Origin: Nitrosopumilus sp. b3
GTDB taxonomy: Archaea; Thermoproteota; Nitrososphaeria; Nitrososphaerales; Nitrosopumilaceae
Reading direction: 5' to 3'
Assembly: GCF_014078525.1 (NCBI RefSeq)
Contig: NZ_MU078694.1
Location: 357,885 to 389,884, forward strand
DNA: 32,000 nt
The notes under the pieces were generated by a model. The model had not been told where the DNA came from, did not search any database, and saw nothing but the letters and a program-made list of their open reading frames with translations. The position numbers were made by a program, and so were the translations under genes. Shown here in pieces: positions 26,057 to 29,300 of this stretch. Position 1 is the stretch's first letter, and each line of letters begins with the position of its first letter.

Positions 26057-27061
26057 ATGGAGATCATGGGATTTTACAATTCAACTATTTTGGTCATAGA
26101 GGATAGTAAAGCTGTACGAATTATGCTATCTCAATATATTAAAAAAATTGGATTCACAAAAATTATCGAATCAGAAACGGGTCAAGAGGGAATTCAAAAA
26201 TTTAATGAATTAGTGGAAATTGAAATCACACCCATTGTATTTGTAGGATATCATTTGCCGGACATGAGTGCAGCTGAAATTATTCCAAACATATTATCAA
26301 AAATGCCAATAACAAAAATTATTCTAGAGACATCAAAAGACAGACATGAAGAATCCGTACGAAGTTTATTTTCATTAGGGATTTCACATTACATGCCAAA
26401 ACCATTACGTTTTGAAAATATGAAAGAGGTGATCAGTACAATTAAAGAAGAATTTGAACTTGATGAAACGTCTGGAGTCGAAACAGAATCAGATAGAATA
26501 AAAGAACATTTGAAAGCAGTTCATCGCACAACCATAACTAGAATTTCACAAAATTGCGGATTACCAACAAAACAAGTTTTGACATATTTGCAAAAATTAA
26601 AATCAAAAGGAGATGTTATGCAAATGAATCCAATTAGAGAAATACTATGTTCCAATTGCAATTCAGTAAATACATCAACAATATTTTCTTGTCCAAAATG
26701 CACAAGTTCAAATTTTTCTGAAACGAGATTAATCGAGCACTATGATTGTGGCTCAGTTCATCCAGATAAAATGTTTAAAGATGATATTTGTCCACAATGT
26801 CAAAAAGAGATCAAAGCGATAGGGGTAGATTATAGGATAATGTCAAATTTGTTTATCTGTAAAGACTGTGAAGAAAGATTTCCAAATCCAGAGATTGATC
26901 TGAACTGTATTAAATGTGGAAATAAATTCACATTTTTTGATGGTAAATGGATTGACAGTCCAACATTCATGTGGATGAAAGAACCATTAGAATCAAAGAA
27001 TATGAATGAAGAAATAACTAATCAGGAAATAATCAATACTATTTCAAATTTAAGTCAGTAA
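26057..27061 (+). CDS. Response-regulator-like protein: atypical receiver (no phospho-acceptor Asp) + wHTH-like segment + multi-zinc-ribbon (TackOD1-like) C-terminal domain
   Basis: 334 aa. In the REC fold, 'ILVIEDSKAVR' keeps the acidic pair, 'IILETSKD' keeps the T/S and 'YMPKPL' keeps the Lys. Aligned with CheY 'FVISDWNMPNMDG', the sequence 'IVFVGYHLPDMSA' puts Gly at the Asp57 position. The C-terminal half has paired Cys motifs CSNC...CPKC, C..(H)...CPQC, CKDC...CIKC. Confidence 0.8.
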   Translation: MEIMGFYNSTILVIEDSKAVRIMLSQYIKKIGFTKIIESETGQEGIQKFNELVEIEITPIVFVGYHLPDMSAAEIIPNILSKMPITKIILETSKDRHEESVRSLFSLGISHYMPKPLRFENMKEVISTIKEEFELDETSGVETESDRIKEHLKAVHRTTITRISQNCGLPTKQVLTYLQKLKSKGDVMQMNPIREILCSNCNSVNTSTIFSCPKCTSSNFSETRLIEHYDCGSVHPDKMFKDDICPQCQKEIKAIGVDYRIMSNLFICKDCEERFPNPEIDLNCIKCGNKFTFFDGKWIDSPTFMWMKEPLESKNMNEEITNQEIINTISNLSQ

Positions 27062-27093
27062 ATGTTTTTTGCCACAGATAGACCCAGTCCAAT

Positions 27094-27246
27094 ATGCTTA
27101 AGTTTGGAGAAATTCTAAAAAAATCCATGGACCTAAATGAATTGCATCAAAAAGAGATTGATTCGCTTAGAGATGAAAATATAGAATTAAGGAACAAAGT
27201 AAAAAAACTAGAAGAGAGAATTCAAGAATTAGAGAGAAAAGAATGA
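27094..27246 (+). CDS. Micro-ORF s1, 50-aa coiled-coil peptide (not in the ORF track)
   Basis: Codon-by-codon translation: MLKFGEILKKSMDLNELHQKEIDSLRDENIELRNKVKKLEERIQELERKE. It starts 33 nt after the RR stop. Its TGA (27244-46) overlaps the next ATG (27243-45) as ATGA. Confidence 0.55.
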   Translation: MLKFGEILKKSMDLNELHQKEIDSLRDENIELRNKVKKLEERIQELERKE

Positions 27247-27383
27247 CGTCATTTGAAGATAAAATACGAGAAAAGATGATTAGACAAAAAGAAGAGTATG
27301 AGAAATATAAGAAAAAAGAGGGAGATTCAGACCTACTCTTTAATGAAAAAGACAATAAGAGTAAAATTCAGGATAAAGAATGA
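27243..27383 (+). CDS. Micro-ORF s2, 46-aa highly charged peptide (not in the ORF track)
   Basis: MTSFEDKIREKMIRQKEEYEKYKKKEGDSDLLFNEKDNKSKIQDKE. It has ATGA overlaps at both ends, and the two junctions share the 10-mer AAAGAATGAC. Confidence 0.55.
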   Translation: MTSFEDKIREKMIRQKEEYEKYKKKEGDSDLLFNEKDNKSKIQDKE

Positions 27384-27550
27384 CTGAAAATGCCAATGAT
27401 GTCTACTCAGAAATAGACGAAGAATTAGAAATTACAGACGAGCAAGCACAAGAACTTTTGAAATTAAATGAAAAAGAAATTCAGATTTTAATTCTTTCTG
27501 AATTAAAAAAAATAACATCACTTCTTAATCAAAGAAAAACCAAAAAATGA
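27380..27550 (+). CDS. Micro-ORF s3, 56-aa peptide with acidic N-terminus and basic C-terminus (not in the ORF track)
   Basis: MTENANDVYSEIDEELEITDEQAQELLKLNEKEIQILILSELKKITSLLNQRKTKK. Its TGA (27548-50) overlaps the ATG (27547-49) of the 3D-domain gene. Confidence 0.55.
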   Translation: MTENANDVYSEIDEELEITDEQAQELLKLNEKEIQILILSELKKITSLLNQRKTKK

Positions 27551-28275
27551 AACTAGGAATTATAATTGCAGTGATTTTGATTGGAATAATTGGAATAGAA
27601 GAATCGTTTGCAAAAGAGTCAAAAATCCCAAATTGGATATTAGATGTTTATGATTTTTGGGCAGAAAAGAAAATTTCGGATGCAGAATTAATTAATGCAG
27701 TAAAATTTCTAAATGAAAAAAGTATCTTACCATTAGTACTACAAAAGGAATATGACTATAAATCAAATTTTTTATTGACTATATTACATAACGACTTTGT
27801 ATACGAAGAAAATTCTTGTAATGATGGATGGTATGTTACAGGGTACTTCATACCTGTAGAATCAGATTACTCTAGTTATGCCATAGAAATTAAAATTGAT
27901 GATCAGTTCTTTGAATATGATTATGATTTTGTAGATTCTGTGAAGAGAGAAGGTTGGGGGAAAACAAATAATGGAAATTATTTAGGTTGGTATTCAAATG
28001 AATTTCATCTAAATGAAGTTCCTTTGGATAATTTTGGGAATACATTAAAAGTTGGAACCATTGCTATTGATCCTTTATCATATGAATTGGGCTCTAAAAT
28101 ATTCATTTCATCCCTTATTGAACCATGGAATGAGATAATTTTTACTGCCAATGATGTTGGCGAATCAGTAAAGAACAAGCACATTGATGTTTTTACAGGA
28201 GAAGGTATAGAGGCTGAAAAGGAGACCTTCAGAATAACAAGTTACAATAATTCGGCATGTTTTATAGATGAATAA
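27547..28275 (+). CDS. Secreted protein: signal peptide + 'IPxW...W..KISD' module + MltA/3D-like (double-psi beta-barrel) C-terminal domain
   Basis: 242 aa. N-terminal hydrophobic signal MKLGIIIAVILIGIIGIEESFA. The C-terminus 'GWYVTGYF.P.ESDY' ... 'EGWGKT..G.YLGW' ... 'VGTIAIDP......GSKIFI' ... 'FTANDVGESVKNKHIDVFTGEG' carries the three spaced Asp (AIDP / NDVG / IDVF) that define the 3D domain of MltA-type lytic transglycosylases. Confidence 0.7.
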   Translation: MKLGIIIAVILIGIIGIEESFAKESKIPNWILDVYDFWAEKKISDAELINAVKFLNEKSILPLVLQKEYDYKSNFLLTILHNDFVYEENSCNDGWYVTGYFIPVESDYSSYAIEIKIDDQFFEYDYDFVDSVKREGWGKTNNGNYLGWYSNEFHLNEVPLDNFGNTLKVGTIAIDPLSYELGSKIFISSLIEPWNEIIFTANDVGESVKNKHIDVFTGEGIEAEKETFRITSYNNSACFIDE

Positions 28276-28479
28276 TTTTTTGGTAATATTTTTGAGAGTA
28301 AAAATTTTCTTAGTTAAAAAAATCCACATCAATCCAGTAAACTATCATGAAGATGTATTCAAGATCTCAATCCAGAAATAATCATCATTACTACAAGGAA
28401 AACGCCCAATCCCATTACTCCGATTGTAATGAGTTTTAGTATATGATAATATGTGATTATTGGTATATGAGTTTAGAAT

Positions 28480-28746: not shown

Positions 28747-29151
28747 TTGATATTATTGCTAAATACATTCCTGATTTTCGGATTGACAGTTACTTTGTTT
28801 ATTGGGCTGATTTCATTTGTAATGGCTGACTCTGATGAAGAATATTTGCAACTCAAAAGAATCTATGATGAGCAAAGATGGAATCTTGAAAAGGAATTTA
28901 AAGAAAAATTCAAACAATCGAGTATTCAGTTTAAGGAGAAAAAACAAGAGATCTATGAAAAAAGTGAATCAGACTCAACATCGACAGTTGAACAAACCAA
29001 CCAAATGCTCAGAAATGCATTTCATGAATTTCTAGATAGGCAAAAAGAAATCAAAACAGAGTATACCTCCAAAGTAGATGCACTAAATGAAATGTTTACA
29101 AAAAAATTTGAACAGTTTGAAAATAAATACCTCTATGGGTTAAAAAAGTAA
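28747..29151 (+). CDS. N-terminally membrane-anchored coiled-coil protein (134 aa, TTG start); reading frame appears interrupted at its 3' end
   Basis: A TM helix (LLLNTFLIFGLTVTLFIGLISFVMA) is followed by K/E-rich helical sequence. It ends ...YGLKK-TAA-TAG, with the heptamer A-AAA-AAG (29142-29148) directly before the stop. Confidence 0.6.
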   Translation: MILLLNTFLIFGLTVTLFIGLISFVMADSDEEYLQLKRIYDEQRWNLEKEFKEKFKQSSIQFKEKKQEIYEKSESDSTSTVEQTNQMLRNAFHEFLDRQKEIKTEYTSKVDALNEMFTKKFEQFENKYLYGLKK

Positions 29152-29300
29152 TAGAGTTATGGGATGAAGGAAAAATATCAGATATTGAATTTGTAAACTT
29201 TTTATCATTTTTAATCAATAATGATATAATCACAGTAAACCAACTAGATTTTTTAAAATATGACAGTAAAATTGTGCAGTTGATTAACGTGGCAAAATGA
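29127..29300 (+). other. Start-codon-less -1-frame continuation encoding a second 'IPxW...W..GKISD' module (frameshifted 3' part of 28747-29151, or product of -1 frameshifting)
   Basis: The -1 frame is open from 29127 to TGA 29298-29300. It reads IPLWVKKVIELWDEGKISDIEFVNFLSFLINNDIITVNQLDFLKYDSKIVQLINVAK. That is 15/37 identical to residues IPNWILDVYDFWAEKKISDAELINAVKFLNEKSILPL of the 27547 protein. There is no ATG/GTG/TTG before the motif. Confidence 0.5.

Follow-up and report, generated by a model that had tools for sequence, protein, structure and literature searches.

Three consecutive short reading frames upstream of a 3D-domain gene in Nitrosopumilus evolve as small-protein genes and probably belong to one compact unit

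In a stretch of 32,000 nucleotides of DNA from Nitrosopumilus sp. b3 (the whole of which is called the window below), the interval between a response-regulator gene and the gene of a 242-aa 3D-domain protein contains three short open reading frames, s1, s2 and s3. The locus raises the question of whether these micro-ORFs are genes and, if so, what kind of unit they form. A preliminary description of this DNA had proposed that they are chained by ATGA and that the last junction leads into the 242-aa gene, and we reproduced all of its ORFs and junctions at the same coordinates (Table 1). The frames of s1, s2, s3 and the 242-aa gene are 0, 2, 1 and 0. ATGA is found at each of the three junctions: neighbouring genes have these 4 nt in common, and TG belongs both to the stop codon of one and to the start codon of the next. 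Nowhere else on the two strands of the window do ORFs of 35 aa or longer meet at ATGA, and a search of the window for paralogues of s1–s3 found none. The G+C content is about 30%. Our best explanation overall, to which we give a probability of roughly three in four, is that three real small-protein genes and the 3D gene make up one compact leaderless unit, with termination-reinitiation at the downstream genes.

Table 1. Features of the locus and their positions in the window.
Feature	Position	Strand	Description
Response regulator	26057-27061	+	Pfam TackOD1 'Thaumarchaeal output domain'; upstream of s1
T6 run, putative oligo-T terminator	27065..27070	+	4 nt past the response-regulator stop; would separate that gene from the operon
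Promoter-like box CAATATGCTTAAGT, BRE/TATA-like	27090..27103	+	Conserved; contains the ATG 27094 used by gene callers
s1, 50-aa form	27094-27246	+	Form given in the preliminary description
s1, 39 aa (MDLNELHQKEIDSLRDENIELRNKVKKLEERIQELERKE)	27127..27246	+	Single-helix coiled-coil small protein
s2, 46 aa	27243..27383	+	Lys/Glu-rich, low complexity; ATGA overlap on both sides
s3, 56 aa	27380..27550	+	Acidic (pI 4.6), helical; invariant core ELLKLxEKEIxILILSELKKI
242-aa 3D-domain protein	27547..28275	+	Hydrophobic N-terminus; C-terminal Pfam PF06725 3D, E = 1.3e-7, 32.2 bits vs cut-off 23.8
T6 run, putative oligo-T terminator of the operon	28276..28281	+	Immediately past the 3D-gene stop
Antisense ORF	27167-27355	-	Ser/Phe/Leu-rich

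The segment was aligned from five genomes, and Nei-Gojobori dN/dS was computed in all three frames. The results showed that dN/dS in the proposed frame was 0.04 for the s1 core, 0.10 for s2 and 0.03 for s3, compared with 1.50 and 0.68, 2.45 and 3.76, and 3.06 and 7.97, respectively, in the shifted frames. Variable columns at codon positions 1/2/3 numbered 3/3/14 in the s1 core, 7/3/21 in s2 and 4/1/28 in s3; codon position 3 holds 63 of the 84 (p = 7e-15), and the enrichment is found in each ORF separately (p = 9e-4 for s1, 9e-5 for s2 and 1.5e-9 for s3). The dN/dS values of the neighbouring genes were 0.06 for the response regulator, 0.21 for the 3D gene and 0.08 for a 192-aa gene upstream. 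In distant contexts, synonymous sites are near saturation and the core residues are invariant. Length, frame and synonymous bias in orthologous loci had been named beforehand as the features to compare, and in all of them the three ORFs look like coding sequence (dN/dS 0.03-0.10): frame, length and start codon are kept in orthologous loci, with the exceptions of s2 in one genome (L015, GCA_001674955.1) and s1 in the loci L013 and L014. These alignments establish s1, s2 and s3 as genuine protein-coding genes under purifying selection at the amino-acid level. The exception in s2 is a 1-nt deletion in an A-run, which shifts the second half of s2 to another frame. Since a comparable homopolymer-associated frameshift occurs in the next gene in the window, an assembly error in the A-run is plausible; otherwise, the shift may be a sign that s2 is dispensable.

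The preliminary description had called the three ORFs unannotated. This applies to its ORF track with a 60-aa cut-off, which hides three strongly constrained genes within 460 bases, and it does not apply to NCBI nr, which holds the exact s1, s2 and s3 sequences. Among the members of their 90% clusters are proteins of N. adriaticus and of Nitrosopumilus MAGs that carry the name 'hypothetical protein', and by the exact matches the DNA comes from a close relative of N. adriaticus NF5 and of several Nitrosopumilus MAGs. The N. adriaticus NF5 annotation (CP011070, locus L002) lists genes of 38, 46, 56 and 242 aa with 4-nt overlaps directly after the response regulator, and the same four-gene chain is annotated in three further assemblies, MAGs included. 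As hypothetical proteins, s1–s3 are already known in public annotation, and on the loci compared the four-gene order is kept in related genomes. In several public annotations the start of s1 is probably misplaced by 11 codons, giving the 50-aa form.

That form had also been taken for s1 in the preliminary description, and here the comparison led to a different start codon. ATG 27094 is not conserved (three of the five genomes have AAG or AGG there) and lies inside a conserved 14-nt box, whereas ATG 27127 is invariant, and the homologues of s1 are mostly 37-42 aa long and start with MDLNELHQ. The box pattern, CAAT[AG]N[CG]CTTAAGT, occurs a single time in the window. Its distance to the start codon is 22-23 nt for every intact s1 homologue among the fetched loci (11 loci), and the same spacing before a start codon was found in 14 of the 14 loci carrying the 14-mer. 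TTAAG begins at -29 from ATG 27127, and in a set of 26 other genes of the window it is at -29/-28 that TATA-like 5-mers are most frequent. Given the unconserved upstream ATG and this box geometry, we read the 14-mer as the promoter of s1, with a leaderless mRNA; s1 is then probably a protein of 39 aa rather than 50 aa, and the 27094 start an over-extension, which arises because the box happens to spell ATG-CTT-AAG-TTT (MLKF).

A leaderless start would be in keeping with the lineage. In the GeneMarkS-2 classification, 11 of 11 Thaumarchaeota fall in the class with prevalent leaderless transcripts, in which the promoter box is found at a distance of about 26 nt from the gene start (PMC6028130). 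The proposed s1 resembles such 'group D' first genes in the distance of its box from the start codon, and the same geometry is seen at many other genes of the window; it differs from them in that the box, a 14-mer with CTTAAG at its centre, is unusually well conserved and is not a plain A/T-rich TATA. No promoter box of their own was found here before s2, s3 or the 3D gene. Concerning the ends of the unit, T-rich runs are present at the corresponding place after the response regulator in related genomes, runs of T5 or more are absent within s1–s3, and T5-6 runs are present inside the 3D gene. Because of these internal runs, T runs are weak evidence for a single transcription unit, and their pattern may fit one unit reaching from s1 through the 3D gene.

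The three small genes differ in how widely they are distributed. Close homologues of s2 form seven clusters, all of 46-47 aa and all from the N. adriaticus-like clade. The s1 homologues form 15 clusters, in which the N-terminal half is invariant, and those of s3 form 29 clusters, including a 49-aa Nitrosopelagicus protein (296 contigs) and a 53-aa protein (222 contigs). The s3 alignment has 22 invariant columns, and a profile search with it against 1.84 billion representatives gave 43 matches, which range in length over 30-215 aa and in 38 cases stay below 100 aa. We read eight of these matches: over-extended ORFs or artefacts of assembly seem to account for seven, and the eighth, of 215 aa, is an unrelated repeat protein that matches weakly. 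Both the s1 and the s3 family were seen only in Nitrosopumilus-like genomes and Nitrosopelagicus. In Nitrosopelagicus (L004-L007), s3 stands alone between a PRA-CH (hisI-type) gene and gatB, and in L018 it stands alone between genes with PurK-type and AIRC (purE-type) domains. In L010-L012, s1 and s3 follow each other with a 28-nt gap and no s2 between them, downstream of a class II aminoacyl-tRNA synthetase gene (tRNA-synt_2). In L019, L021 and L022, s1 precedes a 229-aa gene, and in L020 it lies 20 nt before an Aminotran_3 aminotransferase and radical-SAM/BATS pair, which we read as bioA-bioB from the Pfam domains. A different box, AAAGTTTAATC, was found 24-26 nt before the s3 ATG in L010 and L018; the box in L004 is similar and more distant. 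Thus s1 and s3 are often apart and are adjacent in two independent arrangements. We read s1 and s3 as independent, presumably older small genes, and s2 as a clade-specific addition between them.

The promoter-like box of s1 appears to travel with its gene into unrelated operons, and this is the one feature of the locus that seems to go beyond the ordinary. The box precedes intact s1 homologues across at least four other gene neighbourhoods. In L013 and L014 the 14-mer heads a 251-aa gene instead, whose protein has a hydrophobic N-terminus resembling that of the 3D protein, and the s1 copy there has decayed (ATG changed to ACG, plus a frameshift), so that s1 is not indispensable everywhere. A broader interpretation of these observations, which we consider rather unlikely, is that s1 and its invariant 14-nt box are a portable leaderless micro-gene heading unrelated Nitrosopumilaceae units, that the box alone drives the 251-aa gene of the L013/L014 type, that the coiled coil or the box acts as a lineage-specific regulator, and that s1 and s3 could form a new heteromeric complex. 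If this were true, these units would be linked either by a coiled coil of 39 aa or by the box, serving as a regulatory site that they share. In a narrower form, s1 with its box would be a portable regulatory module, either a small regulator of the coiled-coil type or a signal shared by a regulon, and not a structural partner of s3. The same 14-mer does occur at the same spacing before s1 ahead of s2-s3-3D, of s3, of the 229-aa gene and of the putative bioA-bioB (20 nt), and the gene headed by the box in L013 encodes the 3D-protein-like N-terminus just described. However, the gene after s1 begins anywhere from -14 to more than +300 nt from the s1 stop, hence there is no uniform coupling, s1 is without a basic DNA-binding segment, and a promoter travelling with its gene is the simpler reading, so we regard a regulatory module as unlikely.

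The preliminary description had also tied the three ORFs to the 242-aa gene, and the wider comparison did not bear this out. The 3D gene is the last cistron in the window, and this position is likewise occupied in L002, L008 and L015. In L009, however, the 3D gene is destroyed by a stop after 12 codons and a deletion, and s1–s3 are intact. Homologues of the 3D protein at 47% and 49% identity have no adjoining micro-ORFs. A 3D-protein scan of species-representative genomes found one distant locus (L001, 47% identity), without micro-ORFs, and a metagenome scan with the response regulator found two loci, of which L016 is incomplete and L017 (60% identity) lacks micro-ORFs downstream of that gene. 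These data bear on the possibility that the micro-ORFs are leader peptides or uORFs, in which the act of translation alone matters and controls the 242-aa 3D gene. Their position directly upstream of a larger gene, with which they overlap, would suit such a role, and given the stop/start overlap the 3D gene would rely on them for its translation (PMC6728339). Against it, the peptide sequences are strongly conserved, which is unexpected if translation alone matters, s1 or s3 occurs in five or more other neighbourhoods that have no 3D gene, L009 has kept s1–s3 after losing the 3D gene, and the 3D homologues mentioned above do without upstream micro-ORFs. The comparative data largely refute control by leader peptides, and we judge it improbable. 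From the other neighbourhoods and the loss in L009, the tie of s1–s3 to the 3D gene would be one of operon packing and not of functional dependence.

We then compared the junctions across the five genomes. The s2/s3 ATGA is invariant (5/5). At the s1/s2 junction, ATGA is present in three genomes, and in L008 and L009 a 1-nt change gives an s1 of 42 aa with a 14-nt overlap; at the s3/3D junction, ATGA is again present in three genomes, and the same two have an 11-nt overlap with an s3 of 58 aa. Thus the ATGA junctions are conserved in L002 and partly in L015, and where ATGA is lost (L008, L009) it is replaced by longer overlaps, never by gaps. The results showed that the overlaps persist across genomes while their exact form drifts. 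An exact hand-over at ATGA, as first described, is therefore too strict, since two genomes have the 14-nt and 11-nt overlaps and one has the frameshift in s2. The 10-mer AAAGAATGAC is present at both the s1/s2 and the s2/s3 junction of the window, as had been noted. We rejected it as a functional junction signal: its s1/s2 copy is not conserved in L002, L008 or L009, and for this reason the 10-mer was taken as incidental.

Overlaps of this kind have been studied experimentally in other organisms. Of 14 gene pairs with ATGA overlaps tested in Haloferax volcanii and E. coli, 13 were strictly coupled (Huber et al. 2019, PMC6728339), and termination-reinitiation works only where genes overlap or lie a very short distance apart (Huber et al. 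2023, PMC10666635). The genes analysed here are like these -4 nt pairs in being co-directional, in having stop and start share ATGA, here at three successive junctions, in having no clear Shine-Dalgarno sequence before two of the three downstream starts in the chain, and in retaining the overlaps in related genomes as 4, 11 or 14 nt. They differ from the Haloferax volcanii and E. coli pairs in that the cistrons are unusually short (39-56 aa) and the host is a Nitrosopumilus, known here from sequence alone.

It was also considered whether the micro-ORFs could have arisen by chance between genes, in DNA rich in purines and in A and T, or could be a side effect of a conserved non-coding element, RNA or DNA. 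The region is indeed strongly purine-rich (GC skew 0.27, AT skew 0.22), and s2 is of low complexity. The preliminary description had judged the chain very unlikely by chance, and our simulations agree with it: when the 32-kb window was shuffled 1000 times with its dinucleotides preserved, no shuffle produced a chain of three junctions and a chain of two came up four times, and a Markov model with the local purine-rich composition gave single junctions at most. Moreover, the micro-ORF segment has no match in Rfam and no excess RNA structure (folding z-score 0.17), and the substitutions are concentrated at codon position 3 as described above. For s1 and s3, a chance or non-coding origin is already refuted by these data, and for the locus as a whole we find it very improbable.

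Hardly credible is a single longer gene, either broken by frameshifts into a pseudogene or read by programmed -1 frameshifting, for although each ORF is in -1 relative to the preceding one and homopolymer indels do occur between assemblies, each piece has its own conserved ATG and keeps its length across genomes, no longer protein that combines s1 and s3 with genuine added sequence was found (s1 word-index hits of 37-83 aa, s3 profile hits mostly of 30-102 aa), s1 and s3 are separate genes with promoter-like boxes of their own in other lineages, and purifying selection matches that on the neighbouring genes in strength.

The AlphaFold model of s1 is one helix over residues 3-38 with a pLDDT of 95.6. 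In the best heptad register, the a/d positions are occupied by N-H-I-L-N-L-V-L-I-L-E, which places Asn18 together with I/L/V/L/I/L in the core. The leucine-zipper-type coiled coil that had been suggested for s1 thus agrees with the prediction of a single long helix and with heptads containing a core Asn. Like a GCN4-type parallel leucine zipper, s1 would have one continuous helix of 4-5 heptads, an I/L/V core and a single core Asn (N18); in contrast to it, s1 has no basic region, its family scores are sub-threshold, and it is known from a predicted single chain. The N-terminus of s1 is acidic and invariant (MDLNELHQKEIDSLRDEN), and no basic DNA-binding region is present. Its best Pfam match, FlaC_arch (PF05377), scored 18.5 bits against a cut-off of 27.8, as a generic coiled coil, and bZIP_2 scored 14.3 bits against 22.3; all of the coiled-coil matches in Pfam and NCBIfam (FlaC_arch, bZIP_2, DivIC and GpsB) remained below threshold.

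The model of s3 has helices at residues 5-10, 20-27 and 31-55, with a pLDDT of 81. The s3 alignment profile gave no match at E <= 10 against PDB, and a Foldseek search of PDB with the model gave none either. Neither s2 nor s3 matched any Pfam or NCBIfam family. With regard to toxin-antitoxin and anti-phage defence systems, PADLOC gave no hit at E <= 0.01 for s1–s3, and there was no relevant match in Pfam or NCBIfam.

Taken as one compact leaderless unit of four genes, the locus would work as follows. Transcription would proceed from the CAATATGCTTAAGT box and start at or next to ATG 27127, giving a leaderless mRNA, and one transcript would span s1 to the 3D gene. Termination-reinitiation at the stop/start overlaps would account for the translation of s2, s3 and the 3D gene and would result in roughly fixed product ratios. 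The s1 protein may form a parallel coiled-coil dimer and s3 a helical hairpin with a hydrophobic ILILSEL face. It could be speculated that the two make up a small cytoplasmic complex, since s1 lies next to s3 in two independent arrangements and the subunits of heteromeric complexes are enriched for short overlaps (PMC10666635); this idea is weakened by s1 and s3 being often separate. Equally speculative is a cellular role of s1 and s3 that is independent of the 3D protein.

Stop/start overlaps and a leaderless first gene are standard archaeal genome architecture and not a new kind of system, and s1–s3 leave the understanding of how such operons work unchanged. What the locus adds is two conserved small-protein families without a known domain, s1 and s3, and a well-defined promoter-like box that can be used in further studies. 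Few ammonia oxidisers of the ocean are as abundant as Nitrosopumilus and its relatives, and to our knowledge their small proteins are essentially unstudied. The three genes are a clean candidate set for Ribo-seq, peptidomics and interaction work, and N. adriaticus NF5 is in culture. Small proteins of up to 70 aa have been catalogued by Ribo-seq and peptidomics in the archaea Haloferax volcanii and Methanosarcina mazei (PMC10117724, PMC11456600). s1–s3 resemble them in being short, conserved, lineage-restricted, without a known domain and easily missed by fixed ORF-length cut-offs, and differ from these catalogues in that they were already called by NCBI annotation and are read here from DNA only.

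The minus-strand ORF opposite s1 and s2 exists as had been described, and it contains stops in three of the five related genomes, in agreement with its proposed nature as an antisense shadow.

The response regulator gene and the 3D gene, which flank the micro-ORFs s1, s2 and s3 in the window, were also found side by side in a more distant relative (L017), with identities of 60% for the response regulator and 49% for the 3D-domain homologue. There the 3D-domain homologue lies just upstream of the response regulator gene, whereas it lies downstream in the window, and no micro-ORFs were found at this response regulator/3D-homologue locus; therefore, the regulator/3D neighbourhood may be older than the micro-ORF insertion. 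At one related locus that contains the s1-s2-s3 region (L009), the 3D gene is destroyed: only residues 198-242 are still recognisable further on, and its place is taken by a 96-aa Cys-rich protein carrying CEFCGCRGG..CYY.CGCHK twice. At another (L015), the second half of s2 is read in a different frame, giving a product of 47 aa, and the frameshifted s2 shares an 8-nt overlap with s3.

Coordinates of the features at the window and related loci
Feature	Position	Remark
Destroyed 3D gene	L009 3178-3743 (GCA_025450675.1)	stop after 12 codons
3D-domain homologue and response regulator	L017 1733-3538	more distant relative
s2 with 1-nt deletion	L015 3001-3144 (GCA_001674955.1)	deletion within run AAGAAAAAAGAGG
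~35-aa module, copy 1	window 27620-27730	N-terminus of 3D protein
~35-aa module, copy 2	window 29127-29231	C-terminus of gene following 3D gene
~35-aa module, copy 3	L013 1907-2300	N-terminus of 251-aa protein
Frameshifted gene next after 3D gene	window 28747-29300, +	comparison with orthologues
s1 homologue and neighbouring gene pair	L020 1729-5027	same promoter box
s1 promoter-like 14-mer CAATATGCTTAAGT	L013 1871-1884; L014 907-920	ahead of 251-aa gene
Three further called small genes (38, 81, 41 aa)	L010 3167-3748	downstream of s1-s3 pair

A module of ~35 aa, IPxW(I/V)..V..(F/L)W..(G/K).ISD.E(F/L)..(A/F).(K/S)FL, occurs three times, and no Pfam family matched it. One of the genes that carry it, the next after the 3D gene, encodes 159-171 aa in L015, L002 (N. 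adriaticus NF5) and L008, and the window copy is frameshifted. Its frame 0 ends at 29151 (...FENKYLYGLKK, then two stops), and the +2 frame carries on beyond this point as IPLWVKKVIELWDEGKISDIEFVNFLSFL...VAK before its own stop. The frameshift is due to an indel close to an A-run at ~29120-29130, which is either an assembly error or the mark of a recent pseudogene.

In L013 and L014, the s1 promoter-like 14-mer stands 22 nt upstream of the GTG start of the 251-aa gene, whose product has a hydrophobic N-terminus, and not ahead of s1. Further downstream, the start codon of the s1 copy reads ACG in place of ATG, and a 1-nt frameshift affects the 3' half of this copy. Upstream of ~26 window genes, TATA-like 5-mers (TTTAA, TTAAA, TATAA, TTAAG and the like) show a sharp maximum at -29/-28 relative to the start codon, suggesting that most first genes of the window are leaderless.

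s1 homologues also occur in other surroundings. In L020, one with the same promoter box is located 20 nt upstream of an Aminotran_3 aminotransferase and radical-SAM/BATS gene pair, which we read as bioA-bioB; this s1 homologue is oriented divergently to a gene carrying CbiA/AAA_26 domains, read as bioD-like. In L010, a class II aminoacyl-tRNA synthetase gene is followed by a five-small-gene cluster made up of s1, s3 and the 38-, 81- and 41-aa genes, and the hydrophobic 38-aa product is likely a membrane protein.
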